Below are positions 4,623 to 62,508 of a DNA stretch of 64,000 nt, piece after piece. Location: contig NC_057751.1 of the NCBI RefSeq assembly GCF_004010195.1, positions 7,060,133 through 7,124,132 of the forward strand, written 5' to 3'. How positions within the stretch are numbered: the first letter of the stretch is position 1; each line of letters starts with the position of its first letter. The notes beneath the pieces are model-generated. The model had not been told where the DNA came from, searched no databases, and was given only the letters and a program-made list of their open reading frames with translations. The DNA is from Chiloscyllium plagiosum. Its lineage: Eukaryota. A program made the position numbers and the translations under genes.

Positions 4623-5244
4623 TCAAAGTTTGTGCGAAGATTTGTAGCTCGGGTGCTCATTGTTGTGGTTCTGTTCACCGAGCTGGGAATTTGTGTTGAA
4701 GACATTTCGTCCCCTGTCTAGGTGACATCCTCAGTGCTTGGGAGCCTCCAGTGAAGCGCTTCTGTGATCTTTTCTCCGGCATTTATAGTGGTTTGAATCT
4801 GCTGCTTCCGGTTGTCAGTTCCAGCTGTCCGCTGCAGTGGTCGGTATATTGGGTCCAGGTCGATGTGCTTGTTGATTGAATCAATGGATGAGTGCCATGC
4901 CTCTAGGAATTCCCTGGCTGTTCTCTGTTTGGCTTGTCCTATAATAGTAGTGATGTCCCAGTCAAACTCATGTTGCTTGTCATCTGCGTGTGTGGCTACT
5001 GAGGATAGCTGGTTGTGTCGTTTCGTGGCTAGTTGGTGTTCATGGATGCGGATCGTTAGCTATCTTCCTGTTTGTCCTATGGAGTGTTTTGTGCAGTCCT
5101 TGCATGGGATTTTGTATACTATGTTGGTTTTGCTCATGCTGGCTATCGGGTCCTTTGTCCTGGTGAGTTATTGTCTGAGAGTGGCTGTTGGTTTGTGTGC
5201 TGTTATGAGTCCTAGTGGTCGTAGTAGTCTGGCTGTCAGTTCAG
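4623..5244 (-). mobile_element. Penelope-like element (Poseidon-type), 5'-truncated, GIY-YIG endonuclease remnant
   Basis: Minus strand reads ..TNIVYKIPCKDCTKHSIGQTGR*LTIRIHEH..HEFDWD..REFLEAWHS (two stops); flanked by 14-bp duplication AAAAAGCAAATGGT (4609-4622, 5245-5258). Confidence 0.9.
4697..4737 (-). ncRNA. Minimal hammerhead ribozyme-like motif (Poseidon-type family)
   Basis: Reverse complement gcaCTGAGGA t gtc...gac GAAA tgtc; core boxes intact, palindrome and stem I partly decayed. Confidence 0.6.
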
Positions 5245-5264
5245 AAAAAGCAAATGGTGGCTGT

Positions 5265-5583
5265 GGGTGGCACAGTGGCTCAGTGGTTAACACTGTTACC
5301 TTACAGTACCAGGAACCAGGGTTTGATTCCAGCCTTGGGTGACCGTGTGGAGTTTGCACATTCTCCCCATGTCTGCATGGGGTTACACTGGGTGCTCCAG
5401 TTTCTTCCCACAACCCAAAGATGTGCAAGTTGGGTGAAATGGCCGTGCTAAATGTGTAGGTTAGGTATATTAGTCAGCGGTAAACGTGGAGTAATAGGGT
5501 AGGGGAATGGGTCTGGGTGGGTTACACTTCAGAGGGTCGATGTGGACTTCATGGGCTGAAGGACCTGTTTCCACGCTGTAGGG
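5265..5583 (+). mobile_element. HE1-type V-SINE
   Basis: tRNA-like head, V-domain, CR1-derived tail GGACCTGTTTCCACGCTGTA. Confidence 0.92.
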
Positions 5584-5789
5584 GTGGAATTTTTCATTGA
5601 ACCTCAGACTGGAAACAGTGAGGAGCACATATGATTTCTTCTTTCGCCCACAAACTGCAAGGAAGCAGGCAGATTGCAGGTGAATTTTAGAAAATAACTG
5701 TTGGCTTAAAAGCTTGTCAACTTCCCTGTAATGTCTTTGCATTAAACAATGGATAAGTTCCCAACCCAGAATTGACCCAACCACTGTGT

Positions 5790-6178
5790 TGGAGGCTGAG
5801 GGGTGACCTTATAGATGTTCACAAAATCATGAGGGGTTATGGATCGGGTGAATAGTCAAAGCCTTTTCACCGGGGTAGGGAAGTCCAAAGGGAAAGGTTT
5901 AAGGTGAGAGGGGAGAGATTAGAAAGGGACTGAAGGGGCAGCTTTTTCACGCAGAGGATGGTGCTTGTATGGAATGAACTGCCAGACAAAGTGATGGAGG
6001 CTGCTGCAATTACAACAGTTAAAAAGCATCTGGATGGGTATATGAATAGGAAGGAGTTAGAGGGATAAGGGCCAAATGCTGACAAATGGGACTAGATTAG
6101 GTTAAGATACCTGGTCGGTATGGACGCATTGGGCCAAAAGGTCTATTTCCCATGCTTGAAATCTCTATGACTCCATGA
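5790..6178 (+). mobile_element. HER1/CR1 LINE 3' fragment
   Basis: GGAGGCTGAGGGGTGACCTTATAG (RLRGDL motif) through a CTCTATGACTCCATGA tail. Confidence 0.9.
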
Positions 6179-6474
6179 GACTGCATTTTTGAGTTTACTA
6201 ATGTAGGTTGGAACTATCCTGCCCCCTTACTCGTTATGAAGTTTCACTTGTAATGGACATTGAAGTCCTTTATCAATGTTACTGCCTTCTTCTTTCAACC
6301 ATTCTTGGTAATGTGTTCCATCTTCTGATAATCCATTGTTTCGAACAAGTAGTCTCATTATTCCATTGATAATCTTCTGACTACAGTCTCATATTTCATA
6401 GGCGATAACATTTATAAAAATTTATCATTTCAGTCATGTATGCTGTGATACTAAAGGTGACTTTCAATTACTAG

Positions 6475-6559
6475 GAGTCCGTTTATTGGTTCCACTGGGG
6501 GCAATTCCAGAGGGAAATTCTTGGGAAATATACATTGCAGTCAATCAAGGCGTAAACAG
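6475..6559 (+). CDS. unc5d: UNC5D-like netrin receptor, coding exon (ZU5 domain, N-terminal part)
   Basis: ctag|GAGTCC...AAACAG|gtaagg; 85 nt, phase 1 to 2; reads (G)[27 protein letters not shown], matching the UNC5 ZU5 motif GVSLLIPxGAIPE..WEIY. Not in the ORF track because it is short. Confidence 0.93.
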
Positions 6560-7224
6560 GTAAGGGATAAGACATATCAAAACTGAATATAATTTTTGTG
6601 TTCTGGACAAAAGTGTTTATTGGAATGGGGAAAGGTGCAGGTTTGCCTGCGTCGCATTCCTGTTTTCGGGTGTGTGGAGAGTATTTAAGTGGGTCAGTTG
6701 AAGTGACAAAGTGGATTCGTTTTGGATATCTGTCATGGTGTGCTGGCCTACAGACAAGGAAACAACCTGAACCATTAATTGAAGTCGCTGGTTGTTATGA
6801 ACTATCTTTTGATCTTACATTCAACTTTGTGGGCATGGCATCTGGAAAAAAAACATGAAATTATGCCATTTTGTCTGGAATATTTTTTAATAGTAAATAA
6901 TTAGAGCTTTGGGATCTAATTGCATGGTTTTTTTTGAAAAATAGTAAAACACAGTAATTATATATTCACAATGCTTCATTTCATTAGCACTTCACTGTTA
7001 AATATTCCAACTGAAATATCAGAACTATTAAGAGTATTTATTATAAATAATTTGCTTCACATCAGCTAATTATAGATTATTATTATAACACATGAATGCA
7101 CTTTTAATTATGTTGAAGTTGGGTGTATCTGTCCTAGCGATTCACCTAGTTCTTAACAAAGCCTTACTGACTGTTGTATTCCACCAACATGTGCTGTGAC
7201 GGCAATTACATATTTCAGTGCTTC

Positions 7225-7330
7225 AGTTCTGAAAAAGAGTCTTTGGACCTGAAAAGTTAACTCTGATTTCTCTGCAGAGATGCTGCCAGACCTGCTGAGC
7301 TTTTCCAGCAATTTCTGTTTTTGTTTTTTT
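7225..7330 (+). mobile_element. Penelope-like terminal repeat fragment (family 2) with decayed hammerhead core
   Basis: AGTTCTGAAAAAGAGTCTTTGGACCTGAAAAGTTAACT followed by GATGCTGCCAGACCTGCTGAGCTTTTCCAGCAATTT, shared with 21930, 23940 and 48050. Confidence 0.7.
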
Positions 7331-8424: not shown

Positions 8425-8679
8425 GCACAGCAAGGTCCCAGACTAACCAGATACAAAAGCAAAATACTCAGGATGTTGAAGATAGGAAATAAACAAACCA
8501 GAAAATTCTGGAAATAAGGAGAGAGGTAACATTTAATGTCAGTGAATCTTCCTGAGAATGATTCTGATGGAAGGTCACAGGCCTGAAATGTTAATACTGC
8601 TTCTTCGTCCACTGATATTGTCAGCCTTGCTGTTTAATTTCAGCCTTCCTTTCTCTTCGTGCTTTTCCAGAACTCGGTG

Positions 8680-9320
8680 GGATTGTCACAATTCTGGTTG
8701 ATCGCTCAAGACTGCCCTCCACTGCACCATCTCAATTCCATTTTCCACTGTTCTAACCCACCCCATCCAAACGCAATAAAGACAGGTGCACATCATCCTT
8801 AAACACTTCCACCAACTCCACTTAAACCCCACCACCAAGAACATCTTTCCCTCCCCACCCCTCTCTGCCTTCTGCAAGGACCATTCCCTTCAACACTCCT
8901 TGGTTTGTGCCACTCTCCCCACCAACCCTCCCTGAACCCCCCCAATTACCTTCTCCTGCAACTGGAAAAGATTCAAAACCTGCGGATACACCTCCCCCCC
9001 TTAACTCCATCCAGGGCCCCAAACACTCCTTCCAGGTGAGACAGAGGTTCACCTGTCCCTTCTCCAACCTAGTTTACTGCATCGGGTGCTCCCAATGTGA
9101 TCTTCTCTACATCAGGGAGACAAAGTGTAAACTTAGGGAATGGTTCGCCGAGTATCTGAGTTGGGCCCACAGGGGCCAACCAGACCTCCCAGTCACCGGC
9201 CATTTTAATTCCCCTTCCCATTCCCTTTCCGACATGACCATCCTTGGCCTCTTCCATTGCCACAACGTCCCAAACCGTAAATGGGAGGAACAACACCTCA
9301 TCTTCCGCCTGGGCAGCCTA
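8680..9320 (+). mobile_element. Penelope-like element fragment, GIY-YIG endonuclease
   Basis: ORF 8907-9368: FTCPFSNLVYCIGCSQCDLLYIRETKCKLREWFAEY...GHFNSPSH...EEQHLIFRLGSL. Confidence 0.88.
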
Positions 9321-9403
9321 AAGGTGCCCATCCTGTTGCAAACCATCTCTATTTATTGGGGCTGGTAACCTGAGCCAGTGTACGCTGACCTGCCTGCACC
9401 AGT

Positions 9404-9786
9404 GGGAGAAAGTGAGGATGACAGATGCTGGAGATTGAAGTCGAAATGTGTGGCCCTGGAAAAGCACAGCAGGTCAGGCAGCATCCGAGGAGCAGGAGAA
9501 TCAATGTTTCGGGCAAAAGCCACTGCCCTCTTAACTGTCCTACCTGTCCATCTTCCTTCCCACCTATCCGTTCCACCCTCCTCTCCGACCTATCTCTGTT
9601 ACCTCCCACCTTCATCTACCTGTCGCCTTCCCAGCTACCTTCCCCCTACCCCCACCATCATATTTATCTCTTAGCCCCCTTTCCCCACCCTCCCACATTC
9701 CTGATGAAAAAGGCTTATGCCCAAAACATCAACTCACCTGCTGCTCGGATGCTGCCTGACTTGCTGTGCTTTTCCAACGCCACACT
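9404..9786. mobile_element. Penelope-like fold-back insertion (family 1)
   Basis: Inverted terminal repeat 9404-9521 versus about 9710-9786, with 3' UTR between; decayed CTGATGA core at 9701. Confidence 0.85.
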
Positions 9787-11193: not shown

Positions 11194-11290
11194 TTCTGGA
11201 TTAGAGGTGCTGGAAAAGCACAGCAGTTCAGGCAGCATCCGAGGAGCAATAAAATCGACGTTTCGGGCAAAAGCCTTTCATCAGGAATAC
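11194..11290 (-). mobile_element. Penelope-like terminal repeat (family 1) with hammerhead core
   Basis: Reverse complement attcCTGATGA a aggc tttt gccc GAAA cgtc gatt; flanked by TGAGTATCCTAAA (11181-11193, 11304-11316). Confidence 0.8.
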
Positions 11291-11449: not shown

Positions 11450-14400
11450 CATAAGTTCATAAGACAAAGAAGCAAAAAGCCCATCGATTCTGCTCTGCCA
11501 TTCAATCACAGCTGATATGCTCCTCACCCCCATTTTCCTGCCTTCTTCCAATATCCCTTCAACCCATTACCAGTTATAAATCCGTCTAACTCCTCCTTAA
11601 AATTACTCACTGTCCCAGCATCCACTGCACTTTGGGGTAGCAAATTCCGCAGATTCATAACCCTCTGGGAGAAGTAGTTTCTCCCCAACTCTGTTTTAAA
11701 TTTGCTGCCCAGATCCAAAGACTATGACCTCTCTTTCTAGAATGTCCCACAAGAGGAAGCATCCACACCTTTTATCATGTTGAATACCTCAATATGACTT
11801 CCCCTCATTCTTCTAAATTCCAGAGAGTGTAGACCTAAACTGTTCAGTCTCTCCTTATATGACAAACTCCTCATCTGGAATCAATCTAGTGAACTACTGC
11901 ATCTAAATAAGGAGATGTAAACTGTGCACAATACTCCAGGTGTGGTCTCACCAATACCATGTGTAGTTGCAACAATACTTCCTCACCTTTATATTCTATT
12001 CCCTTAGCAATAAAATCCAACATTCCATTCACTTTATTACCTGCTGTACCTGCATGCGAGTTTTCTGTGACTCATGAATAATCTCGATCCCTTCAAAACA
12101 CTTAGATCCCTCTGCACCAGAGCACCCAAAGTCTCTCCTCATTAAGATAATACATTGCCTTCCCATTTTTTCGATCCAAATGCATGACCTTACACTTATC
12201 CACATTAAATTCCATCTCCCATATTTTGGCCCACTCTCCTAACCTATCTATATCCATTTGTAAGGTTCTTATTTCCTCATTGCAATTTACCTTCCCACTT
12301 AATTTTGTGACATCTGCAAATTTGGCTATAGAGTCTTGTATTCCTGAATTCAAGTCATTAATGTCAATTGTAAATTGCTGGGGTCCAAGGACCAAACCCT
12401 GTGGCACCCCACTAGTTATATCTTGCCATCCAGAAAAACACCCATTTATCCCAACTCTCTGTCTTCTGACCATCAGCCAGTCATCTATCCAGGCTGATAA
12501 ATTACCCTTATCCCATATGATCTAACCTTGTGAATTAACCTTTTACACCTTCTCAAACACCTTCTGGAAGTGCAGATAAATGAGGTCTATAGCATCCCCA
12601 TTATCCACCTTGCTTGTTACTTCTTCGAAGAACTCTCACAAATTAGTTAAGCATGATCTGTCCTTGATAAAACCATGCTGACTCTGATTGTGTTTTGATT
12701 TTCCAAATGTCCTGATATTGCTTCTGTGATAAGTAATCCTAATAACGGAACGATTTGATAATTATTTCCCAACAGATAAATATTTTCCAACAACAGATGT
12801 TAAACTTACTGGTCTGTATTTTCCCACATTTTACCTCCCTCCGTTTTTGAATAAGGGCATTATATTAGCTGTTTTCCAATCCACTGGAACCTTTCCCGTG
12901 TCCAGGGAATTTTGGAATATTTTAACCAATGGATCTATGATCTCCATTGCAACTTTGTTTAATATCCTAGGATGTAAGCCATCAGGCCTAGGGGACCTGC
13001 CTATCCTCAATCCTAATAGTTTGCTTAGTACCTTCTCTCTATCTTTGTTGATTGTTCTACGTTCGACCTTATCTATCGTCTCTGACTTGCCTGTTCCAAA
13101 AGGAATGGTACTGTTGTCCTCCACTGAGGCAAAGTATTGATTCAGCATCTCTGCCATCTCAGTGTTCCCCACTATTAATTGTGCACTTTCATCTTCCAAG
13201 GGGCCAACATTCACATTAGCAACTCTGCTCCCTTTTGTATACCTATAGAAGCTTTTGCTATCGTTTTTAATATTTTGTGCAGGTTTTCTTTTGTAATTAA
13301 TCTTAGCTCTTCTTATTAATTTTTTATTATCCTTCTGTTTATGTTTGAAAGTTTCCCAGTCTTCCATCCTGCCACTGGCCTTTGCAATATGGTATATCTT
13401 AGTTTTTGACTTTATGTTGTTCTTGACCTCCTTGTTTAGCATGGATGTTTTTTACCTTCCTAAACATGTTTCTTCCTCACTGGGATATATTTTAGTTGTT
13501 AGGAACTGAATTGTTCCTTAAACGTCTGCCGCTGATTATCCGCTGTCTTACCATTTAGCCTTCCTGCCCAATCTACTCAGGCCAAATCTGTCCTCATGCC
13601 TACATAGTTTCCTTTGTTTAATTCCAGAACACTACTTTGGGATTCCACTTCCTCACCACCAAACTGAATTTTGAATTCTGTTATACTATGGTCACTAGCC
13701 CCCAGAGGATCCTTAACTATCATGTCATCAATTAATCTTTCCTCATTACACAAACCCAAATCCAGAGTAAAGTTGTGCTAGAAAAACACAGCAGATCAGG
13801 AAGCATCTGAGGAGCAGGAAAATCGACGTTTCGCGCAAAAGCCCTTCATCATTCCTGATGGAGGACTTTTGACCAAAACGTCGATTTTCCTGCTCCTCGG
13901 ATGCTGCCTGACCTGCTGTGCTTTTCCAGCACCACTCTAATCTTGACTCTGATCTTCAGAATCTGCAGTCCTCACTTTTGCCAAATCCAGAGTAGCCTGC
14001 TCCTTGATTGGTTCCACAACATACAGCTCCAAGAATCAATCTCTAATACATTCAGTGAACTCTGCTTCCAGGCTACCCTTGCCAATCCGATTCTTCCAAT
14101 CTATGTGCATGTTAAATCATCCAATTATTATTGCCATACCTTTCTTGCAAGCCTTTAATATTTCCTGGTTTTTACTCTGCCCCATTGTAGAACAACTGTT
14201 TGGAGACCTATAGATTACCCCGACCAAGTACTTCTTCCCTTCGCTATTTCTTGTTTCTACTCAGACTGATTCCACAACTTGATCTCCTGTGCTTAAATCA
14301 TTTCTGATTACAGCATAGATCACTTTCTTCACCAGTGAGACCACTCCACCTCCTTTTCCTTTCCGTCCATCTTTCCAAAATGCTGAGTACCCCAGGATAT

Positions 14401-21927: not shown

Positions 21928-22127
21928 TGAAACAGAAATTGCTGGAGAAGCTCGGCAGGTCTGGCAGTGGAGACAAAACAGAGTTAATGTTTCGAGTTCT
22001 AGCAACCCTTCTTTGAAACATTTCAGACTTGAAACGTTAACTCTTTTTCTCTCTCCACAGTTGCTACCAGATGTGAGCCTCTGCAGGAATTTCTGTTTTC
22101 GTTTCAGACTTCCAGCATCCGCAGTTC
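21928..22127. mobile_element. Penelope-like fold-back insertion (family 2)
   Basis: AACAGAAATTGCTGGAGAAGCTC...GAGTTAATGTTTCG versus GAAACGTTAACTC...AATTTCTGTT inverted arms. Confidence 0.75.
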
Positions 22128-22131
22128 ATCA

Positions 22132-23939: not shown

Positions 23940-24105
23940 AAAGAACGAAAGAACAGTGGATGCTGGAAATCAGAAACAGTAACAGAAATTACTGAACTGA
24001 ATTACAGAACTAAAAAATGATCACTGGACCCGAAATGTTAACTCTGATATCTCTCGAGATATGCTGCCAGACCTGCTAAAGTTTTCCGGCAATTTTTGTT
24101 TTCGT
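23940..24105. mobile_element. Penelope-like fold-back insertion (family 2)
   Basis: GATGCTGGAAATCAGAAAC...CAGAAATT inverted to AATTTTTGTTTT; TCACTGGACCCGAAATGTTAACT core remnant. Confidence 0.72.
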
Positions 24106-24347: not shown

Positions 24348-24534
24348 GGAGAAAATGCGGACTGCAGATGGCTGGCCATCAGAGTCAAGAGTGTGGTGCT
24401 GGAAAAGCACAGTAGGTCAGGCAGCATCCAAAGAGCGGGAGAATCGACTTTTCGGGCATAAGCCCTTTATCAGGATTCTTCTGCTCCTCGGATGCTGCCT
24501 GTCCTGCTGTGCTTTTCCAGCACCACACTCTCGA
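24348..24534. mobile_element. Penelope-like fold-back insertion (family 1)
   Basis: Inverted arms; 14-bp duplication CTCATGGTTTAGTG (24334-24347, 24535-24548). Confidence 0.88.
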
Positions 24535-25572: not shown

Positions 25573-25741
25573 CCTGCAGCCAGAAGGAGCTGAGGTAATC
25601 TTGAGTCCCGAGGTCACCTGCGGGCCACCAGGTCTGTCCTTGTCCAGCCCCATTGCTCTGACTGTCCCTCACTGCGCAATGGTATGTTCGGAGCACTGGA
25701 GCATAAAGCTGAAGAGACAGACACTGACAGGAAAGTGGGAG
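25573..25741 (+). CDS. unc5d: UNC5D-like netrin receptor, coding exon (ZU5 domain, C-terminal part)
   Basis: Polypyrimidine tract ttctctttccag|C...TGGGAG|gtaagt; 169 nt, phase 2 to 0; (S)LQPEGAEVILSPEVTCGPPGLSLSSPIALTVPHCAMVCSEHWSIKLKRQTLTGKWE; AG+C restores Ser with the previous exon. Confidence 0.95.
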
Positions 25742-26765: not shown

Positions 26766-26904
26766 AACACACAAAATGCTGGAGAACCTCAACAGGTCTT
26801 GGAAAATCTGTAGAGAAAGAAATGGAATTAACATTTTGAGTCCGGTACGACTTCTTCAAGTCTGCATACTTGAAGAAGTCGTACTGGACTCAAAACGTTA
26901 ATTC
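26766..26904. repeat. Penelope-like fold-back remnant with near-perfect 37-bp palindrome
   Basis: 26825-26861 is the reverse complement of 26868-26904 at 35 of 37 positions. Confidence 0.85.
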
Positions 26905-26971
26905 TGTATGCATCATGTTTGTTCAGCCAGAAGGACATAGAGCAGTAGAGTCATAGAATTGGCACAGAAAT

Positions 26972-32174: not shown

Positions 32175-32420
32175 AAAACATAAAGTGCTGGAGGTCACAG
32201 CAGGTCAGGCAGCATCCATGGAGAGAAAGCAAGTTAACGTTTAAAGTCTGGATGGCTCTTCATCAGAGCTGAAGTGAAGTGTGGAGGGGGCAGCATCTAT
32301 GCAATAGTTTTGGGGGGTGGCTGGGGGTTGGACTACTGGGGGAGAAAGGTTGTTGGTAGTTCAGATTAAGTAATTGGAGTGTGAGAATGGAAGAACAATG
32401 TTGTGTCTAACTGCCAGACT
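32175..32420 (-). mobile_element. Penelope-like 3' end fragment (family 2-related) with hammerhead-like core
   Basis: Reverse complement agctCTGATGA a gagcc atcc agactt TAAA cgtt aact followed by GGATGCTGCCTGACCTGCTGTGACCTCCAGCAC. Confidence 0.68.
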
Positions 32421-34886: not shown

Positions 34887-34923
<37 letters not shown>

Positions 34924-40164: not shown

Positions 40165-41580
40165 TCAGGTCTATTGGAGTCTATTATAAAAATGTGATAA
40201 CTGGACACTTAGAAAATAGAAATAGGATGACACAATGTCATCATGGATTTATGAAAGGGAAATTATCTTTGACAAACTCACTGGAATATTTGAGGACATA
40301 ACTAGAATAGATGAGGCAGAGCCAATGCATGTTGGTGAACTTGAGTTTTCAGAAAGCTTTTGAAGACTAGATTAATTTCGGATATCTGGTCGGCATGAAT
40401 GAGTTAGACCAAAGGGTCTGTTTCTGTGCTGTACATCTCTATGATTCTAAGCCCCACTAAAAGGTTAGTGTATAAAACCACAGCACATTAGATTAGTGGT
40501 AATATACTGGCATGGACTGAGAATTGGTTAACAGATGGGAAACAAGGAGTAGGAATAAATAGATCTTTTTCAGAGTGGAAAGTGAAATGCTGGGCACCAC
40601 AAAGACCAGTTCGTAGGACCCCAGCTATTCACAATGTATAGCAAGAGTCTGGATGAGAATATCACATGTCATGTTTCCGATTTTGCTGATGGGTGAGACT
40701 GTGAAGGGTGAGAAGGATGGAATGGGGCTTCAACGTAATTTAAGCAAGTCAAGTGAGAAGATGACCTGGGGGGTGCAGTGAGAGAGGGACTCACTGAGAT
40801 CCTTGTAGAGGGAGGAGGAGCGCTTCTTCAAGGTAGGCATCCTTGCAAGAGGATTCACAGTAGGTTAAGATCAACTAGGAGAAAGTGAGGACTGCAGATG
40901 CTGGAGACCAGAGTTGAAAAGTGGGGTGCTGGAAAAGCGCAGCAGGCCAAGCAGCATCCGAGAAGCAGGAGAATTGACGTTTTGGGCATAAGCCTGAAGA
41001 AGGGCTTATGCCTGAAACGTCGATTCTCCTGCTCCTCGGATGCTGCAAGGCCTGCTGCGCTTTTCCAGCACCCCACTTTTCAACTCTGGTCTCCGGCATC
41101 TGCAGTTCTCACTTTCTCCAAGTCAAGTGAGAAGGCAGTAAGTGAGGAGGCAGTTGCACGGCGAATGTAGTGTAATGTGGATAAGTGTAAAGTAGTCCAC
41201 TCTGGATGGCAGAGTATTATTAAAATGGTGATTGATTGGGAAATGTTGACATAGAAAAGGATCTAAGAATCTTGGCACGCGGGTTGCCATCAGACTGCAG
41301 GTGCAGCAAGCAGATGGGAAGCAAATGGTATGCTGGCCTTCATCACAAAAGCGTTCAATTACAGGAGCAAAGAAGCCATACCACAGCTGTGCAGAGCCTG
41401 GGTGAGGCCCATCTTGGAATATTTTATATCGTTTTAGTTTCCTGACCTCAGAAAAGATATGCTTGCTGCAGAGAGAGTGCAGCAAAGGTTCACTGGACTG
41501 ATTCCTGGGATGGCACATTTGTTATATGAGGAAAGGTTGGGTTAACTGGAATTTAGGAGATCGAAATGGGATCTTATCGA
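40165..41580 (+). mobile_element. Decayed CR1 LINE ORF2 segment with nested insertions
   Basis: CATGGATTTATGAAAGGGAAA (HGFMKGK), TTTCAGAAAGCTTTTGA (FQKAF), GTGAGGCCCATCTTGGAATA; HER1 tail inserted at about 40365-40450. Confidence 0.8.
40761..41118. mobile_element. Family 1 Penelope fold-back with long arms and 5'-ORF remnant
   Basis: Arms about 40878-40994 and 41002-41119; 16-bp duplication CAAGTCAAGTGAGAAG (40745-40760, 41119-41134); CTGAAGA a gggc ttat gcct GAAA cgtc at 40994-41021. Confidence 0.9.
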
Positions 41581-41666
41581 AATAAGTCTTTCTCTGCTAT
41601 TTCACTACAACAAAGATATTTTGATGGTTACGCACTGGTTTGAAATTGGTGGGAAGAATTTCAATA

Positions 41667-42010: not shown

Positions 42011-43032
42011 TTAATAGCTTCTGTTTCTCATCTGAAAAGGTTTTCTGAACCATTTAATGAGCTTTATTTCAGGTCGATTGGAGTTTATCATAAAGAAAGT
42101 GATATCTGGACACTTAGAAAATAGAAATAGGATGACACACTGTCACCATGGATGTATGGAAGGGAAATTATGTTTGTCAAACTCACTGGAATATTTGATG
42201 GCTGAACAAACTGGATGCAGGAATTATATTCTCCGGGCTGGGGGTGTTCCAAGCCAAGGAGTCATGGTTTCAAGGAGTCATTGGTTCAGGAGAAGTGGGA
42301 AGCCATTTTGGATTGAGATGAGGATGGTGAACCTGCAAATTTCTCTGCCTCAGAAGACTGAGGAGATGAAGTTGCAAAAGATATTTAAGAATGAAATCGA
42401 TAGATTTCGACAGGTGAAAGATATTAAGCTGTATTGGGGAGAGCTTGGGAGTAAGGCATTGAGATAGCAGGTCAGCCATGGGTGGGTTGAAGGATCTCCT
42501 CCTGCTCTCATTTTATGTGTTTCTGAGGTAGGAACTGTTACTCCACTTTTTATAAGGATAGTGGTTTGAATGTGTCTTGCAAACCTTTAGAATGGAAGCA
42601 AAATGAATTTGAGGCAAATTTAAATTTTAGTTGCAGCTTGGTGTTTCTTAGTTTTGAATGAGACAGATATATAGTGAACAATGAAAAATCCTTGGCCCAA
42701 AATACAAGGGCTCATTTTAATCTCATGCTCGCCGCAACATCTATGAGGATTGATGGAATGAGCACCTATGTGCTGCTCAGTACGTCTATCTTAATTGCAA
42801 TGGAAAATCATTTTACTCAGTGTGGGGAGTGGAAGAGTTTCTGCAGAAAACCCAGTTCCATCAGTTTCCCAATAAATGATGCATCTTAAAATTGTGGACA
42901 TAGTTAATACTTTTCCTCTGGATATTACTTAAACATCTGGGTATTTTCTCTTTCTATTGTGGGTAATTTGATGTATTTGTTGCTGGTTGAGTTTTGAATT
43001 TCAGTTGCCAATGTTTCATTAATCCTCCTCAG

Positions 43033-43260
43033 GAAGTGATGTTGCTTGAAGACGAGACCACATCCTGTTACTGCCTATTGGATTCTCATTCCTGTCACAT
43101 CCTCTTGGACCACCTTGGCACATATGCACTCGTGGGCGAGGCAGTCACAGAGTGTGCGGAGAAGAGACTGAAGCTTGCTGTCTTTGGGCGTCTGTCCTAC
43201 AGCTCACTGGAGTACAATTTCAGAGTGTATTGCATGGACGACATTCCAAGTGTTTTGCAG
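43033..43260 (+). CDS. unc5d: UNC5D-like netrin receptor, coding exon (ZU5 to UPA junction)
   Basis: cctcctcag|GAAGTG...TTGCAG|gtattg; 228 nt, phase 0/0; [76 protein letters not shown]. Confidence 0.95.
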
Positions 43261-43804
43261 GTATTGTACTGAAGGAAGCATTTACTTGACCTAGTTTCAC
43301 TTACCGCAAGAGAGCTTGACATCTAACTCCAAGCTTTAATTTTCACTTGCTTCAGCGCAGCTCCTGTGACAAATAGATATTTTTAAACTTTTGAATATTT
43401 ACGTGATGCAATCCATTTGAATGGATTTTTACAATGCAGTCTAAGTCATCATCAAAATACGTATCAAATCCCATTTTAAAGGTTACTTTGGAGTCAGCTT
43501 TGATTGTTCTTTCAGGCAGAGAAGAGGGGAAAACAAGGGTAGTGAAGTGGTTGGAAAAATTAAAACGAGAAATGGAGGGAATGTTCATTGCATCAGTAAC
43601 TGATTGCAAGTCACTAAATTTGCATTGTAAACTAATAGTAACCCTGATAAAGCACTGCTCCCACTCATAACAAACAGCAAAGCACTTTGTTGATTGTCTT
43701 CGTCTAACCAGTAGAAAGTGAGGACTGCAGATGCTGGAGATCAGAGTTGAAAAATGAGGTGCTGGAAAAACACAGCAGGCCAGGCAGCATCCGAGGAGCA
43801 GGAG

Positions 43805-43840
43805 AATCGACGTTTCGGGCATAAGCCCTTCTTCAGGAAT
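43805..43840 (-). ncRNA. Minimal hammerhead ribozyme motif (best preserved copy)
   Basis: Reverse complement attc CTGAAGA a GGGC ttat GCCC GAAA CG TC gatt: both core boxes, perfect 4-bp stem II, ACGT palindrome, GUC site; stem I is short. Confidence 0.72.
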
Positions 43841-44301
43841 GAGGCTGGTGTGCCAAGTGGGCTGAGATAAAGGGTAGGGGGGAGGGAATTTCTGTCGCAA
43901 ATTCACCTGCACCTCCACACACATCATTTACTGTATCTGTTGCACCCAATGTGGTCTCTTCATTGGGAAGACAGGCCGCCTACTTGCGGAACGTTTCAGC
44001 AAACACCTCTGGGACACCCAATTTCTGTCGCAAATTCACCTGCACCTCCACACACATCATTTACTGTATCTGTTGCACCCAATGTGGTCTCCTCTTCATT
44101 GGGGAGACAGGCCGCCTACTTGCGGAACGTTTCAGCAAACACCTCTGGGACACCCTCACCATCCAACCCAACCGCCCTGTGGCTGAACACTTTAACCCCC
44201 CCTCCCACTCCGCCAAGGACATGCAGGCCCTTGGCCTCCTCCATCACCAGATCCTGACCATACGCCGCCTGGAGGAAGAGCCCACTTGGCACAACAGCCT
44301 C

Positions 44302-44337
44302 GTTCCTGAAGAAGGGCTTATGCCCGAAACATCGATT
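44302..44337 (+). ncRNA. Minimal hammerhead ribozyme motif on the unc5d sense strand
   Basis: gttc CTGAAGA a GGGC ttat GCCC GAAA CA TC gatt; palindrome broken by a CpG-type change. Confidence 0.6.
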
Positions 44338-47300
44338 CTCCTGCTCCTCGGATGCTGCTTGGCCTGCTGTGTTTTTCCAGCACCACATTTTTCATCTAAC
44401 CAGTACTAAGTAAGTAGCGCGTCCCTCTTATTAATTAAAAGGTGCAAATACCCAACAACATGTACTTCCATTCATATAAGCTCTGCCCAAAGGCAGATCC
44501 TTGCTTCATTGTCCATCAATGATTCATCCTTTTTAAGTTGATTCCTCGGTTGTTTTTGTTTGTAAGCTGGTGGTTTTCAATTGCCTTCTGCTGTCAGGGG
44601 TAAGAAAGCCTGACCTAAATCTCAGCCAGAATGACAACCAAACCTGCATTGTTGGCATTATGCTGAACCACTCGCTAGTTCACTAGCTAATTGCAAGAAC
44701 CAGCCCCTTCTGAAATGAGTAGTCATTGCACAAACTGTTATTCAACAGCCAGATTCTCTCCACACTAGTCAACTTGAGGTCGAGCTCCATAGTCCAAGCC
44801 ATTTTCACTGACCTGATCTTTCTCCTTATCTTGTTGTTTGTGGAGTTATCATTCTGAACCGGGACTCTTATTCAGTGTGTGGTGTTCCTGGGGAGGAAAA
44901 TGCCACCAACACACTTCTTTGCTTGACGGGGTGTATAGGCCTCTGGTTTCCAAGTGGTAGATGACCAATTACTCTTAACAAGTTAGCTTAGTGTTTGATA
45001 GCTGAGTCATAAGTGACATCAGTTTGATAGACATTGTTACGAAGACGACAGGGGGCTTCACTCCATGAGCTCTTAAGTTATTCTGCCTTCTCTTTTGTAA
45101 GAGAGTATGACATCAGGGATTGGGTATCTCTAATATTAATGCTTTCAGAATTATTACATGTGCAACAATCTGTTAAAAAAAAAACTCAGTGGTACAACCT
45201 GAACTGAACCAAACTGATAGATCACATCATTGACAGTGGACTATATTTTGGGCACATCACAATGGGTACATAATCTTCGACTCAACTTCAACTGTTCTAA
45301 ATCGTTCTGAAGTCAACCTCAAAAAAAGGAGAGTTAAAAGAACAATAGAAATTTCAGCATAAGAGGAAGCCAATATCTCCAGATGCTGGCACCACACATC
45401 AAATTCTCTTCTGTTTCAAATCTGCTATTATCCTCAGAAAAACTCTGTGTATTCCTCACCTCGCAATTACTCCACAGTTTGCAATCGCCTCTTTCTTTCC
45501 AAAGTCCTTGTTGCCTCACAAACCTGTGACCTCAGCTTCCCTGCAGCTGCATGTTTCAGACTGTATAACAAGGCTTCCAGCCTGCCACATCACTGAGGTA
45601 GCCCGAATCAAAACCACGAATGACATCCCTTAGAGGGAGCATGTGATAGTAAACTCTCCACTTTCGATTTGCTGATAAAGCAGCCATATCTCTTATTAAA
45701 GCATGATGACTCATTTTTTGATTTAATTCTCAAATCATTTCTTCTCTGCTGAGTGCACTTCATCTGTAACATTAAGATATAGCTGACCTGTCAGCGTCCT
45801 GTGTTACAACTAGCTGCCTGAAACGTCAACTCTTGCATTTCGAATGCTGCCTGACCTGCTGTATTTTTTCCAGTGTTATGCTTTGTCAACTCTGACTCTC
45901 CAGCATCTGCAGTCCTCACTTTCTGCTGGGGCTAAGTTCCCCACTTCATTGCGGTTTCAGACAGGACAACCTGAACTGTCAAGCTTTTCGGTGAGGAGAG
46001 ATGAACTTTTAGTTCACCACCTCCCTCAGTTGGCTGCAGCAAAGTTAATTAAAAAGGTTCATCTCCTTTGTGGATATCTTTCTCCCAACCTAAGTGAACT
46101 TATGCTTTGAAAGAGACCAATTTAACAACATTTCCTTGAATTAACGAAAGGGTCAGTTTGTTAGTTATTCAACCCAGGAGGAAATAATAGTGCAATACAT
46201 ACACACAGAACAGAAATGAGACATGAGTACAATAAAAGATGAATGTTAAAAGCTATTTAGATCAGTCTGACTGGATGTTTCTTGGACAGTAGATAGTGGA
46301 ACATTTTTATCTCAGTAGACAATTTCAGGATTCCTGGTTTTGTAAGTTTGCCAAAATTGATTTGTCCTGTTTGCCTTTTGACTGCTTGGTTAACGAGTCT
46401 CCAGCACTCTGAGAGAGATTCCTTTACCTGCAGTGCTGCCACAATATGAAGATTTTTTGCCTGTCACTTTCACAGCGCACTAGACTTTGATCCCAGGCTA
46501 GCTATGCATTCGTACCCCAAGTCACTCACATATACTGACCAAGGATGGAAGTCTAGTTGGACACCTACCTCTGTGTATTCATAGACTTCCCTTACCCATG
46601 TCCCTGTTGTCATTTCTCCCAACATGCTCATCGTCTGGCAGACTCACAGGGACATGAAAGTTCAGTTTATAGTGTATTTATCCCCTTCAAGCTTCCTTGA
46701 CATATTTCAGTCTGACATTCCAGAGTTCCTCTCCAGGCAGCCACTGAATTTACATGTACAGACATCTTTTGGCTGCTTCTCCTCTTTGGAAAAAAATACA
46801 TGTTGCAGTTAAAAATTCCATATGTCCGTAGGTTTTGATGTGTGGTCATGACACTTGGAAAATCTATATAAACCATACATTTAAAAGATTACACTTCCAG
46901 CTTGTTGTTCCCCGTGCTATGCCAAATCTGGCTTTTGGAGCATCTTATTTTTAACTGACCCACCACTGACAGCCATGCCTTCAGCTCTCACATAACTAAG
47001 CTCCAGGACTCCCCCCTCTCTGCCACCTTAGTCTCCTTTAAAACCTGCCTCTTTGAGAAAGCTTTTGGTCATCTGTCGTCATCATCACCTTATGAAACCC
47101 AGGGTCATGAAGATCCACAGAATGATTTTTTTAAATTTCTCGGTAGAGGGACGAGATGCTTTTCCTTTCTAAATGCTGGTTTTTAAAAGACAGTCTCCAC
47201 CGACTAAGAATTCCCAGAGGAAAATCTTTTTGCTGACTGGAAATTTCCCTTCCTCCACTCCAGGCTGTCAGTGACGAAGAAATGATCATTAGCCATAGTA

Positions 47301-48047: not shown

Positions 48048-48270
48048 TGCAGGGAAAAAACTCAGCAGGTCTGGCAGAATCTGTGGAGAGAAAAACTGAG
48101 TAAATGTTTCGAGTGCCATAAACTCTTCAGAAGTCAACTTCAGCGTTCTGAAGAAGTCATGGGACTAGAAACATTAAGTCTGTTTCTCGCTCCACTGATG
48201 CTGCCAGACCTACTGAGCTTCAGTGGCACTTTCTGTTTTTCGGATCTCCAGCGTCTGCAGAATTTCACTT
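48048..48270. mobile_element. Penelope-like fold-back insertion (family 2)
   Basis: CTCAGCAGGTCTGGCAG...TGGAG inverted to CTCCAC...CTGCCAGACCTACTGAG; gttCTGAAGAagtcatgggactaGAAAcattaa core remnant. Confidence 0.75.
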
Positions 48271-50388: not shown

Positions 50389-50830
50389 TTGTGGGTTTTT
50401 TTTTTGTTCAGTTTTATGTGCTTACTTTAGTTCATTGGTTGTAAAACATGGGAGACATCAGGGAGGAAAAGACTGTTTGAATTGTTGTCAAGTTACACAA
50501 TAATGATGAAGAGTCTGTTTGAAGAGTTTGATTTTTTTACAATTCCTTTTGGAATGCAAGCACGGACACATTGGGCACCTAATCTCAGGATTGCAGAAGT
50601 AAGGCATTTTGAAACACTTGCAAAGGATCTGTAGGGACTTTGGAGTGTCTCTGGCACATGTGAACAGGCAGTATCGAAATGCAAATCTTCCTAATGTATA
50701 AGCCAAACTGATTTCCACTTGAGAAATTTATACTCTTGCACAAGGTTATATGGCTTTAGGTTTACCCTGAGAAGACAAAGAATTTGATCTTCAATGGCAG
50801 GCATTAATTGCTGTGCTCTTCCATTACCAG

Positions 50831-50980
50831 GAAGTGATGTGTGAGGAGAGAAACCAGGGTGGACATCTATTGGACGAGCCCAGAACTTTACACTTCAAAG
50901 CAAACTCATACGGCCTTCAAGTTTCCGTGCTTGACGTACCCCAGTTCCTGTGGAGAATCAAACCACTGACTGTTTTTCAG
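50831..50980 (+). CDS. unc5d: UNC5D-like netrin receptor, coding exon (UPA domain)
   Basis: ccattaccag|GAAGTG...TTTCAG|gtaatt; 150 nt, phase 0/0; [50 protein letters not shown] (LWRIKP is typical of UNC5D). Confidence 0.95.
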
Positions 50981-52848: not shown

Positions 52849-53806
52849 AGAAAATGTGTTGCTGGAAAAGCGCAGCAGGTCAGGCAGCATCCAAGGAGCA
52901 GGAGAATCGACGTTTCGGGCATAAGCCTCCCTTCAGGAATGGGGAAAGTGTGTCCAGCAGGCTAAGATAAAAGGTAGGGAGGAGGGACTTGGGGGAGGGG
53001 CATTGGAAATGCGATAGGTGGAAGGANNNNNNNNNNNNNNNNNNNNNNNNNNNNNNNNNNNNNNNNNNNNNNNNNNNNNNNNNNNNNNNNNNNNNNNNNN
53101 NNNNNNNNNNNNNNNNNNNNNNNNNNNNNNNNNNNNNNNNNNNNNNNNNNNNNNNNNNNNNNNNNNNNNNNNNNNNNNNNNNNNNNNNNNNNNNNNNNNN
53201 NNNNNNNNNNNNNNNNNNNNNNNNNNNNNNNNNNNNNNNNNNNNNNNNNNNNNNNNNNNNNNNNNNNNNNNNNNNNNNNNNNNNNNNNNNNNNNNNNNNN
53301 NNNNNNNNNNNNNNNNNNNNNNNNNNNNNNNNNNNNNNNNNNNNNNNNNNNNNNNNNNNNNNNNNNNNNNNNNNNNNNNNNNNNNNNNNNNNNNNNNNNN
53401 NNNNNNNNNNNNNNNNNNNNNNNNNNNNNNNNNNNNNNNNNNNNNNNNNNNNNNNNNNNNNNNNNNNNNNNNNNNNNNNNNNNNNNNNNNNNNNNNNNNN
53501 NNNNNNNNNNNNNNNNNNNNNNNNNNNNNNNNNNNNNNNNNNNNNNNNNNNNNNNNNNNNNNNNNNNNNNNNNNNNNNNAGGAGCGGTAAGTGCAGGAGA
53601 TGCGGTGGAGGGCATCGTCGACCACGTCTGGGGGGAAATTGCGGTCTTTGAAGAAGGAGGCCATCTGGGTTGTACGGTATTGGAACTGATCCTCCTGGGA
53701 GCAGATGCAGCGGAGACGAAGGAATTGAGAATATGGGATGGCGTTTTTACAGAGGGCAGGGTGGGAGGAGCTCTGATCTCCAGCATCTGCAGTCCTCACT
53801 TTCTCC
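52849..53806 (-). mobile_element. Family 1 Penelope element spanning the assembly gap
   Basis: Minus strand SSHPALCKNAIPYSQFLRLRCICS (PLE RT thumb region); flanks TATAACA(A/C)TGCATGC (52834-52848, 53807-53821). Confidence 0.88.
53027..53579. other. Assembly gap (553 N)
   Basis: Run of N. Confidence 1.
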
Positions 53807-54074
53807 TATAACACTGCATGCCAAGCATTCACAGTTGTAGTTGATATGATTTTGGTGGTACCAAAAGTATTGGGTTGAGAGTGGAATTCTATTGACTGCA
53901 ATGAAACTGAATATCGAATTCTGCAGATATCAAGCAACACTTGAATGCCTCCTGTTCTGAAACACTCAGGATGAATTCTTGCTTTGTTTCATTGCTTCAT
54001 TGACATTCTGGCAATCTTGCTTCATCCAAACAAATCTGAAACACGTACAAAGCTATCACCTTTTCTGTTTGTAA

Positions 54075-58387: not shown

Positions 58388-58705
58388 AGAGTCAATAAAG
58401 TGTGGCACTGGAAAAGCACAGCTGTTCAGGCAGCATCCGATGACCAGGACAGTCAACATTTCAGGCAGGGTCCTTCATCAGGACTGATGAAGGGTCCTGC
58501 CCTAAACATCGACTCTCCTGCTCCTTGGATGCTGTCTGACCTGCTGTGCTTTTTCCAGTGCCACACCTTATCGACTCTAACTCTTCAGCATCTGCAGACC
58601 TCACTGTCTCCAGAAAGGCTTTTGCCCGAAACGTCGATTTTACTGCTCCTCGGATGCTGCCTGAACTGCTGTGCTCTTCCAGCACCACTAATCCAGAATC
58701 TGGTT
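58388..58705. mobile_element. Family 1 Penelope fold-back plus an extra terminal-repeat piece
   Basis: Back-to-back cores TCCTTCATCAGGACTGATGAAGG; the minus copy has a 4-bp stem I (AGTC/GACT); second piece 58612-58705. Confidence 0.82.
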
Positions 58706-59005
58706 TCCAGCCTTGCCACAGAAGGAGACTGTGAATTACTCTGTTTTGCTCGGTTGTTACATTTCATGGCAATACAACGTCACTTTGCTTTCAGATGTGT
58801 TATTCAGGCATTTGATCATCAAAAATATATTCACTATGTGTCCTTGCAGTGTCATCTTCAATGTCATTAAATTCTCTCCCATCCTTCAGGTCCAGGGCTG
58901 CAGCAGAAGAAAAATAACTTGGTCTACTCTTGTTAATGTCAATGTATTTGTTTCGTATTACATATTTTCCTCAGGGAGTCTGATTCTGGCTTCTGTCTCC
59001 AGCAG

Positions 59006-59170
59006 GAATTTGCCTTTTCCCATATCTGGTGCAGGAACCAGCAGCCCCTGCCGTGTGCCTTTAGAGTGGAAAGATTCAACTCAGCTACCACACACTTCTC
59101 CTGCAAGATCTGCATCCGGCAGCTGAAAGGCGATGAGCAGATCTTTCACCTCAGCACCTCCATCTTTGAG
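59006..59170 (+). CDS. unc5d: UNC5D-like netrin receptor, coding exon (UPA domain end)
   Basis: ttctgtctccagcag|GAATTT...TTTGAG|gtaaac; 165 nt, phase 0/0; [55 protein letters not shown]. Alternative start at 59003 (tandem CAGCAG). Confidence 0.94.
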
Positions 59171-61452
59171 GTAAACTTCATAACAACATTTTTCCAGTGA
59201 GCATAGATTTCAGGTTGGACTTGATTCATTGTGGTAGCCAAGTTACAGAAGTAGTCCTGCGAAGGTGCCAGTGATTCAAGGTGTAGCTTACTGTACTTCA
59301 GGGCCAAATGTTCCAGATTCGAGTCCGAGGCCCTGAAACCTGATGACGAAGGAAACTGAGTTCATTACAAGGCCACGTGGGCTCAGCATCAACCTGCAAA
59401 TCCTTTCAACAAAAGCGATTGACTGGCAGTAGAAAGGGGAGCAACTCCTGGTCGACTGCATGAAGGAAAGAAGCTGGCACCTCAACCATCACCACCCATA
59501 GCTCCAGGTGACAAAGTACAAACTAAAGTGCATGTTGCCACAACAACTTGGATTCACTAGGTGAATTTTAACACACTCACTATCAGTGCAATGGAGATGG
59601 AGGCCTGTTGACCCATCAAATTACTTTCAAAGATAATCGCCAGCCTTACTCCCTGCTACTTTTCTCTCTTAAATACTTATTTGTCACTCCATTGACAGTT
59701 ACAATCGAATTGGTCTCAACGACTGTGACAAGCAGCAGAATAGAAATCCTAATCCTTTATTGCATCAGCTTTTTTCACCTGTCACCTCTGGTGCTTCTGC
59801 CAGTTGTCTAAAATCTGTGTTCTCTCCTAATCAATCCTACAACCACTGGGGTCAATTCTTTCATATTTCCTGGGCCGATGTCTGTCGTGATTTTAAACAA
59901 ACCTGTCAGGCAGAGAAGATACGTCTCCTTAGGTTGACAGTTTGTCTTGCTTTGTTATCTGTCTGATCCATCATGCTCTGACCTTTCTACCAGGTACCTC
60001 CTGAGGAGACAACTTCCAGCCTTGAAGCTTTGGCTCTTGAGCCAATTTCAAGCCCAGCTGGCTTCCACTGTTGAGTGTGGCCGCTCCCAATTCAATCTGT
60101 AAAGGAAAAAATCTTTCCCGGACTCTGTCCCTACTTTAAGTTAATACCATTCAAAGTTACATGGTACAGGGAAACATCCTAATGAAATTGTGGTATAGGT
60201 TTTCAACCATTCAACACAAGATTGGTGTTGCAGGTTTTCTGCTAATTATATGAAAGACACAACTTGATTGTTTTATATCCAGCAGCAAGGTTAAAGTCTA
60301 CCCTGGTGCAATGCATACAGCTTTAGCTATCAGCATGCTACAACCTTGGAAAGGTCACAGAGAATGTTTGCTATCATTGTACCTGGTGCCAAGGATGAAG
60401 GAGTTCAGTTCGCTGGAGAATTCATGTGAGCAGATGAGGAGTTGTTCGTATTCTCAAAGGGTTTTTGGAAGGGTAAACAAGGAGAAAATGTTTTCAGCGG
60501 CTGAAGCGTCGAAAGCTTGAGGATACAGATGGAAGATAATTGATGCAGGAGCCCAGAGGCATGAGGAGGAGTGTCACTTCACGGTGCAGCCTGGAACACG
60601 CTACCTGAAAATGTGGTGGAAACAGACACAACAATAACTTCCAAAATGAGTTTGTATCAGTCCTTGAAAGGAAAGATCTTGCAGGATGATGGTGTGAGGA
60701 CAGGGAATTGGGGTTCATTGTAAAGGTCTTTTAAACAACCTGCCACAGGCATGATGGGCTGAATGGCCCACTTCCTGTGCTGTACCATTCTATGAAATAT
60801 GCATTTTTATTTCAGGGCGAGATATACTTTTTCATATTCCTTACAAGAAGTTCTTGCAGGTTTTACTTTGTTTTTTATTACAAAGCATGTTGTGAAGGAG
60901 TCCACAATTTCAGATCCTTTGCTCACAAGGTGAAATAGTCCCAGTTGTGATTGTGCATGAGATCAAGTACATGATGACTAATTCTTCTGAATCTCAGCTA
61001 CACTGATTCTGCATTGTGACCCTTCCCTTCGACCTTGACAGGAGCTGCCTGACAGATTCGATCAGACTTGCATATGGATTAACTCAGGTTCTGCAGTGTC
61101 ATATATTTCTGCTAACATAGATCCAGATGCTCTGTGAAAATTTTCCATTTGCAGAGGATGATGTGTGTCCAGTGGTTAAATGAAGCTCAGCTCTTTACAA
61201 TATAGCCTCCTTCAGCCACACACTCACCAATATATAGGCAATCCTCAGCTGTACTTAATGACCATTTTATCAGAATACACATTCCACAATTAGTGTTTTC
61301 CAAACTGATGCATTATAAATGATCTTTCATAAACTTTATTAACAGGATGTGGGTATTGCTGGTAAGACCAACCACATATCTACCCAGCAACAAAATTGTC
61401 TACTTCCAGTTCCGTAATGTCACTTGTTTCTGCTCTATCTCAGACTATATAT

Positions 61453-61803
61453 CATAGAATCCCTACAATGTGGAAACAGGCTATTTGGCCCAACAAGTCC
61501 ACACCGACCCTCCGAAGAGTATCCCACCCAGACTACTCCCATTCTTACTCCCACTCCCATATTACTCGACATTTCCCCTGACTAATGCATCTAGCCTATA
61601 CATCCCTGAACAATATGGGCAATTTAGCATGGCTAATTCACCTAACCTGCATGTCTGGATTGTGGGAGGAAACCGGAGCACCTAGAGGAAACCCACACAG
61701 ACACAGGACAATGTTCAAACTCCATACAGATAGTCGCCCGAGGCTGGAATCAAACCCGGGTCCTTGGTGCTGTGAGGCAGCAGTGCTAACCACTGAGCCA
61801 CCC
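61453..61803 (-). mobile_element. HE1-type V-SINE
   Basis: CATAGAATCCCTACAATGTGGAAACAGG...GCTAACCACTGAGCCACC. Confidence 0.92.
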
Positions 61804-61869
61804 CAACAGATGACCAAAGCCCAGATCTGAAATGCCTTCTAATCTTTTAGTTCTGGAACTCACACACGG

Positions 61870-62077
61870 ATCCTTCAAAGAGCGACCCACCCCACCCCTG
61901 TAACTCTGCATTTCTCATGGCTACTCAACCTCACCTGCACAACTTTGGACTGTGGGAGGAAACCAGAGCACCTGGATAGACAAGGGGAGAATGTGCAAAC
62001 TCCACTCAGACAGCCGCCTGAGGGTGGAATCAAACCCGAGGCAGCTCTGCTAACCACCAACCCACTGTGCCACTCTG
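61870..62077 (-). mobile_element. HE1-type SINE, internally deleted
   Basis: GGACTGTGGGAGGAAACC...GTGCAAACTCCAC. Confidence 0.8.
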
Positions 62078-62305
62078 CTGATATCCTAATGCATTTTATC
62101 TCCAGAAGGATTCCAGAGTTGGATGATCAGCCGTGATCATAATAAACAGGGAACAGCTCGAAGGGATGAATGGTGTTCTCCTGCACCTATTTTTATGTTT
62201 CTATGGTTGAAGTATTTTGATGCTCTCCTGACCGGCATTCCTACTTTTCATATACTTCAGCTTATCCAAATTTCTGGAGTCAGTCATCGGAACTTGCAGC
62301 AATGA

Positions 62306-62508
62306 TGTGGAGATGCCAGTGTTGGATTGGCTTGGACAAAGTCAGAAGTCACACGACACCAGCTTATCGTCCATCAGGCTTACTTGAAATCACAAGCTTT
62401 TGGAGCACTGCCGCTTCGCCAGGTGACCACCTGGAGCACTGCTCTGAAAGCTTATGATTTCAAATAAACCTGTTGGACTATAACCTGGTGTCATGTCATT
62501 TTGAACTT
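62306..62508. mobile_element. Fourth Penelope-like fold-back family
   Basis: GACACCAG.TTATCGTCCA.CAGG..TTGAAATCACAAGCTTT inverted to AAAGCTTATGATTTCAA..CCTGTTGGACTATAACCTGGTGTC; decayed core with AGCT palindrome. Confidence 0.68.

Follow-up and report, generated by a model that had tools for sequence, protein, structure and literature searches.

The sequence analyzed here (the window) is a 64,000-nucleotide stretch of the 3.56 Gb genome of the shark Chiloscyllium plagiosum (contig NC_057751.1, positions 7,060,133 to 7,124,132; G000:C42:7060133-7124132), whose introns hold many short repeats with a hammerhead ribozyme motif. It lies entirely within a UNC5D-like gene (unc5d, ~C42:6,905,078 to 7,128,591) on the plus strand, so that plus is the sense strand throughout. 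Five coding exons are found on this strand, at 6474..6557, 25577..25741, 43030..43266, 50828..50980 and 59000..59170 (ends approximate). The second of these contains a frame (25580-25741) for a ZU5 domain (Pfam E = 1.6e-15) that shares 96% identity with a UNC5D-like protein of the zebra shark, and the original prediction, which had been made from the letters alone, was right about both the gene and the kind of animal. We consider it very likely that the repeats are truncated end-pieces, or pseudo-long terminal repeats (pseudo-LTRs), of several families of Penelope-like elements, that they carry the known minimal hammerhead ribozyme (min-HHR) motif, and that they are probably inert in the unc5d pre-mRNA.

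The original prediction had placed minimal type I cores of four Penelope-related families at 13 sites, without strands, and a recognizable copy is present at each, most of them damaged. A strict descriptor (CUGANGA, stem II of at least 3 bp, GAAA, a Watson-Crick pair 15.2-16.2, UH, and stem I of at least 2 bp) has two matches in the window and none in any of 30 dinucleotide-shuffled versions; in the four unc5 genes (628 kb) it has 21, and three shuffles of these gave 0, 0, and 1. Profiles built from 15 to 30 genomic copies of each family find 34 hammerhead-bearing copies in the window, here called arms, of which 18 are sense and 16 antisense to unc5d. Of the 34, 25 are in divergent inverted pairs; the copies had been described as scattered, which they are, but this fold-back pairing, a known structure of Penelope insertions, had been missed. 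According to PMC8557442 and PMC3846280, inverted 5′ copies are typical of Penelope-like insertions. A wider sample of 1.41 Mb of introns from eight genes (the four unc5 genes and 779 kb of four CUB-repeat genes) holds 493 arms, which extrapolates to ~1.2 million end-pieces genome-wide; the arm counts given below refer to this sample unless the window is named. The generic core pattern, which does not require stems, matches the genome 208,352 times against 742 times for the control, and the exact patterns of families F1, F2, F3, and F4 match 53,040, 382, 9,626, and 15,273 times with no match to any of the reversed-pattern controls. The very large number of motifs that had been expected in this genome is thus borne out. 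An Rfam scan of the window gave no hammerhead family at E ≤ 10, its best matches being microRNA models on the fold-backs, below their cut-offs.

The CUGANGA and GAAA boxes and an NUH cut triplet are present in the family majority rows, and all five majority rows share an extra base between positions 9 and 10.1 followed by the pair G10.1-C11.1. Among 197 descriptor matches, pattern-selected loci included, the pair 10.1-11.1 is G-C in 163, G-U in 32, and A-U in 2. The F1 majority row, from copies of the profile search, has a 4-bp stem II (GGGC/GCCC), a stem I of UC/GA, U.U, and A-U, and the triplet GUC. The stem I earlier drawn for this family does exist, but in the main subfamilies F1a and F1b it consists of only 2 bp, a U.U mismatch, and 1 bp; in a third subfamily stem I is complete at 4 bp. 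By eye, F1a and F1b may also have a distal helix I. In F2, stem II is 5 bp and stem I is AGUU/AACU, with GUU as the triplet of intact copies, while F3 combines a stem II of 6 to 7 bp with a 3-bp stem I, and F4 has GGAGC/GCUCC, CAC/GUG, and the triplet CUA. There is no helix III in any of them, and the palindrome at 15.1-16.1 is ACGU in F1, F3, and intact F2 copies and AGCU in F4; the F2 majority row does not have a clean palindrome because of CpG decay. As a separate observation, F1 and F2 have a common block of 30 nt about 25 to 60 nt downstream of the cut site despite their different hammerheads, which is possibly a shared binding or priming signal.

The stems differ between families and subfamilies, yet they remain paired and covary. 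One case is in relatives of F3, where stem I reads GCA/UGC, UCA/UGA, or CCA/UGG, a compensated change at a pair on which the descriptor makes no demand. Over 14 natural copies, six of the seven pairs change on both sides (score 0.644, reached in 0 of 500 shuffles), although this set was selected by the descriptor and its three F4 rows are shifted by one column, so that it counts as support and not as a clean statistic. The lack of stem covariation named as a refutation of the original prediction is not what is seen. Further F3-related subfamilies with other compensated stems I and II were noted at loci L125, L130, L199, L204, L255, and L280.

The relation to Penelope, which had been proposed for all four families, holds for each, in that the hammerhead of each family is found behind its own GIY-YIG endonuclease. 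In the eight genes, 38 of 48 GIY-YIG fragments have an arm within 800 nt downstream on the same strand (the other 10 have none in range), and the type of endonuclease predicts the family of the arm: F1-type is followed by F1 (17) or F2 (5), F3-type by F3 (14), and F4-type by F4 (2). A long F1a copy has a reverse transcriptase (RT) frame of 674 residues whose homologs include RT plus GIY-YIG proteins, and RT with a C-terminal GIY-YIG domain is seen in one element at the F1 loci L197 and L198; F2 to F4 were seen at the endonuclease end. A CX4CxxC linker is present in F1 and in an F4-type endonuclease and was not found in the frames upstream of the F3 endonuclease. Since PMC8557442 describes a linker (CX2-5CxxC) before GIY-YIG as the mark of Neptune-type elements, and its lack as that of the Penelope/Poseidon type, F1 and F4 would be Neptune-type and F3 Penelope/Poseidon-type, clade names that come from the linker motif and not from a tree. 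F3 has two alternative 3′ ends. Target duplications of at least 8 bp were found for two of six insertions tried, both of them in the window. None of 22 long F1 loci, many of which contain assembly gaps, has a same-strand pair of pseudo-LTRs flanking the open reading frame, and when long F3 copies were sought, the query itself was the sole match at the chosen cut-off. Long F1a copies with RT and endonuclease (L182-L201, many with assembly gaps) often have head-to-head inverted ends.

The only complete hammerhead of the window is an F1a copy on the minus strand (43799..43844, C3 at 43836) with a predicted cut between 43809 and 43808. It is antisense to unc5d, and so is the stretch 43805-43840 that had been put forward for cleavage assays. 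This copy is the inverted arm of an F1a insertion at 43714..44394 with features on both strands, namely a GIY-YIG fragment at 44029-44292 (+) and a sense arm (C3 44306) without palindrome, flanked by an 11-bp target duplication (43703-43713 and 44395-44405). The first half of its endonuclease fragment is tandemly duplicated (43896-44018 and 44029-44292). The other insertion with a duplication, 14 bp at 4609-4622 and 5245-5258, is a 5′-truncated F3 copy of presumed Penelope/Poseidon type on the minus strand (4623..5244), with the endonuclease end at 5191-4847, a 3′ untranslated region, the hammerhead, and a tail; the core of its hammerhead (C3 4734, minus) is intact, and its palindrome and stem I are damaged. 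All 12 core positions and the palindrome are kept in 4 of the 34 window arms. Two of these are antisense, that at 43836 and an F1b solo arm (11201..11289, minus, C3 11284) in which the first stem II pair is broken. The two sense arms are each one half of a fold-back: an F3 pair at 38180..38403, with C3 at 38259 on the minus strand (palindrome lost) and at 38326 on the plus strand (passing, with a 3-bp stem II), and an F1a pair at 40874..41123, whose sense core (C3 40994, plus) is intact and whose stem I is cut to 1 bp by the fold-back. Every sense copy in the window is either damaged or has an antisense partner, and no same-strand intact pair that could form a dimer was found there.

That the 18 of 34 window copies on the sense strand are carried in the unc5d pre-mRNA, as originally stated, follows from their orientation, and their presence in the RNA itself is inferred. 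We think it improbable that some intact intronic copies cut the host pre-mRNA in vivo, through dimers in cis or trans or with the help of a protein, and that the genome thereby holds a working ribozyme reservoir. The number of core matches speaks for such a reservoir, as does the ACGU palindrome common to F1 to F3, by which dimers across families are possible in principle; the decay of the copies, their fold-back pairing, their random orientation, and the small number of copies that start at the cut site make them look like inert insertion stubs instead. The large and diverse collection first envisaged is real in number, but a usable one is not supported by the copies at hand.

Most copies are damaged, and decay is most evident at CpG sites. 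Among these is the catalytic G12, the general base of the hammerhead (PMC6155905), which is preceded by C in every family. The core is covered in 315 of the 493 arms and intact in 80 of the 493; G12 has changed in 92 of the 315 covered arms (29%), to A in 81 of them, and it differs between the two arms in 20 of 41 pairs. Fold-back pairing is widespread, as divergent inverted pairs hold 275 of the 493 arms. When seven of the window pairs were folded, the sense core was paired to the other arm in all seven, with mean probabilities from 0.69 (the F1a pair at 40874..41123) to 0.97, and of 0.93 for the sense core of the F3 pair at 38180..38403. Intact same-strand pairs within 3.5 kb of each other number two in the 1.41 Mb. 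Two-copy cofolding gave an intermolecular helix III with a probability of at most 0.04 in seven of eight examples and 0.32 in F2, a result that is uninformative as a test of dimers since the method is unable to hold the whole dimer. The copies also lack the traits of domesticated intronic hammerheads of the RECK type, each a single conserved canonical ribozyme that lies on the sense strand and works as a monomer, being instead multi-copy, minimal, decayed, and randomly oriented.

Introns should be short of intact sense cores if such cores cut the pre-mRNA. The replication of this test was fixed beforehand, in the 779 kb of the four CUB-repeat genes with orientation taken from domain matches, and it gave 27 intact arms on the sense strand and 23 on the antisense strand, with descriptor matches at 24 and 16. 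In the four unc5 genes intact arms were 10 sense and 20 antisense (p = 0.10), so that the combined count is 37 against 43 (p = 0.58), with 239 against 254 for all arms. Selection against intact sense cores is rejected, as the hint from the unc5 genes failed both in the replicate and in the combined data. Comparison within pairs shows greater damage to the sense arm in 16 cases and to its antisense partner in 11 (p = 0.44). RNA adds weak evidence: in 2,126 reads of a related organism placed on the F1a insertion, coverage across the cut site is even and molecule ends do not accumulate there, and a second run gave 0 reads.

Several observations weigh against our reading of the copies as inert. 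Among the 80 intact arms, 15 are solo and sense, and the intron of a CUB-repeat gene contains two solo F1b cores, both intact and separated by 580 nt (L222:1965 and 2545, plus), the only intact sense-strand direct pair in the 1.41 Mb and the best natural candidate for a dimer. The discovery set of descriptor matches in the four unc5 genes did show a deficit on the sense strand (5 against 16, p = 0.027), and the strand test is weaker if the eight sampled genes are little expressed in the germ line. The RNA test consists of a lone poly(A) sample, single-cell and from another organism, resolved at the level of the family, and may miss cut ends. Non-CpG core positions have changed less than the flanks (0.057 vs 0.096 pooled, p = 3e-12), also between the arms of one pair (0.079 vs 0.114, p = 0.035, 43 pairs). 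This slightly better preservation of the core may reflect the alignment, which favors arms with a covered core, the richness of the core in A, and flanks that vary between subfamilies; weak selection after insertion may also contribute. Finally, protein-assisted cleavage is described for an element of the anole lizard in PMC11167929. Taken furthest, these points would mean that this shark lineage has the largest hammerhead load yet described and that solo intact copies cut in nascent RNA, helped by a Penelope protein or by ACGU pairing, as a genome-wide form of regulated intron cleavage; we hold this to be marginally less probable still than a working reservoir, and it assumes that of the roughly 200,000 core matches tens of thousands may lie on the sense strand of introns.

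Very unlikely, in our judgment, is the idea that the short copies are self-standing non-autonomous elements, similar to retrozymes or to MITEs (miniature transposable elements with inverted repeats), which spread by their own hammerhead-processed RNA. Such elements would account for the sharp 5′ ends. In F1, F2, and F4, 191 of 456 arms begin 0 to 10 nt upstream of C3 and 19 begin 11 to 20 nt upstream, compared with 3 of 35 F3 arms in the nearer interval (two arms close to the edge of a locus were left out); starts peak 2 to 5 nt upstream of C3 in F1 and F2, where the F2 edge is possibly overstated owing to few references. This edge, near the start of helix I, is also the center of 96 of the 139 inverted pairs. 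Non-LTR retrozymes of animals, moreover, have their origin in Penelope ends, and a single chondrichthyan is among their hosts, according to bioRxiv 10.64898/2026.07.22.740005. Against self-standing elements, the copies span the cut site rather than start there, pair centers and arm lengths vary, and no hammerhead tandem array is present in the window. Most copies are reduced to about 100 to 250 nt, and these short copies grade continuously into long RT plus endonuclease elements with the same inverted ends. Direct repeats were seen elsewhere, as two F2 cores in a direct duplication of 122 bp (L038/L039, G000:C1:27372538 and 27372660, minus) and a similar repeat of a decayed F2 variant (L040).

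Starting points no more than 2 nt from the cut site were seen in only 7 of the 493 arms, from which it follows that the template RNA was likely uncut; an origin of the copies from cut RNA is rejected on this count. The sequence at the 5′ edge of F1a, F1b, and F2 matches the initiator consensus YYANWYY. Judging from these bases, the edge may plausibly be caused by transcription that starts with the first base of helix I, the alternative being a stop of the polymerase. Lastly, the likeness of the repeat ends to a hammerhead might be put down to chance, for which one might cite the missing Rfam match, the weak stem I of F1, and the monomer target fold being the minimum-energy fold in just one of eight examples. 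This reading is already refuted by the counts, 208,352 matches against 742, and is opposed by the recurrence of one core with its extra base, its G-C first pair, and its palindrome across families with different stems, and by a stem I position, left free by the descriptor, at which three Watson-Crick pairs occur.

Truncated, inert ends of Penelope-like elements could arise as follows. In the parent element two tandem copies, possibly together with an element protein, would cut by way of pairing between their 4-nt palindromes, and selection would keep the motif in active parent elements only. Reverse transcription would begin on uncut RNA, some 60 to 130 nt downstream of the motif, run to or just past the 5′ edge of the motif, and often fold back, leaving a stub that spans the cut site. 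A lone copy is predicted to have no stable helix III, and an inverted pair, in whichever direction it is transcribed, to sequester its sense core in a long hairpin.

Among known systems the closest is the min-HHR that Cervera and De la Pena (2014, PMC4209133) describe in the pseudo-LTRs of metazoan Penelope-like elements, with inactive monomers, weak dimers, and ~9,000 copies in Xenopus and ~4,000 in the coelacanth. As far as that description goes, the shark copies agree with it in being type I without helix III, in the palindromic 15.2-16.2, the extra base between 9 and 10.1, G10.1-C11.1, and a short helix I, in having several families per genome and mostly solo copies with opposite-strand pairs 100 to 700 bp apart, and in their place in a pseudo-LTR downstream of RT and GIY-YIG. 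They differ from it in the 4-bp helix II of F1 and in number, 208,352 matches here, a comparison in which the descriptors are not the same. Endonuclease-positive Penelope-like elements, as presented in PMC8557442 and PMC3846280, likewise have RT followed by GIY-YIG, head-to-head inverted ends, target duplications, a CX4CxxC linker (here in F1 and F4, none in F3), and alternative 3′ ends (two in F3), and the shark copies depart from them in being mostly ~100 to 250 nt.

The element PAc (Poseidon, Anolis carolinensis; Frangieh et al. 2024, PMC11167929) is instructive for function, because that report gives its cleavage as protein-assisted and dispensable for insertion, with an uncut template in vitro and no reads ending at the cut site. 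The shark copies resemble PAc in their pseudo-LTR hammerhead, in ending a short way downstream, in spanning the cut site, and in the lack of RNA ends there; the activity of PAc was measured, whereas the shark copies are known from sequence. They share with the non-LTR retrozymes of the bioRxiv report type I hammerheads of Penelope-end origin, but those are described as tandem direct arrays and the shark copies are dispersed, solo or inverted. Our literature search found no shark-specific report of Penelope hammerheads, although supplements and Lunse et al. (PMC5785218) may list some.

The window holds further copies. For F1 they comprise a GIY-YIG-like frame (8826-9365, plus) followed by a decayed inverted pair (9450-9521, minus; 9697-9783, plus), together 8826..9783; decayed F1b fold-back pairs at 13771..13936 and 38005..38166; an F1 fold-back pair at 24391..24526 whose sense arm has no core; an F1-type plus-strand arm without the first core box (45815..45867); and, at 58402..58691, a fold-back pair with both cores decayed (C3 58481, minus, and 58484, plus) next to a sense arm without the first core box (58613-58691). 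An F1a region on the minus strand (52852..53808) contains an arm with one core change (52940-52852), an assembly gap (53027-53579), an RT C-terminal frame (53805-53581), and an inverted tail (53771-53808). F2 is represented on the plus strand by solo arms at 7224..7312 (C3 7229, G8 lost), 8561..8636 (decayed), and 24009..24093 (cited earlier as 24020, first core box destroyed), on the minus strand by an F2-type solo arm at 32187..32270 (G12 lost), and by decayed fold-back pairs at 21938..22090, 26776..26910 (cited as 26868), and 48055..48226 (48148, palindromes lost). Those at 8561, 21938, and 32187 are additions to the sites first listed. The F4 fold-back pair at 62341..62506 has lost A6 and G12 in its minus-strand arm (C3 62422), and its sense arm has a core deletion.

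Other repeats also occupy the introns. Fragments of RT of the long interspersed nuclear element (LINE) type, presumably CR1-like, are found at 19321-20211 (Pfam RVT_1), 12102-13451, 18396-18851, and 48724-49104. An abundant repeat that looks like a short interspersed nuclear element (SINE), and which resembles the shark SINE named HE1, occurs at 1-152, 27120-27348, 31245-31611, 41665-42015, 52031-52347, 56461-56723, and 61455-62078.

The analysis brings a shark into the range of a known motif and does so at scale, the copy number being its main notable point. This scale provides a useful natural dataset, and the sharp 5′ edge of the putatively Neptune-type families (F1, F2, and F4) offers a handle on where the RNA of the element begins. 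The matter would be far greater if it were true that intact intronic copies cut. The role of Penelope hammerheads in vivo becomes testable by simple counts, and the counts made here suggest that the inserted copies do little to host genes.

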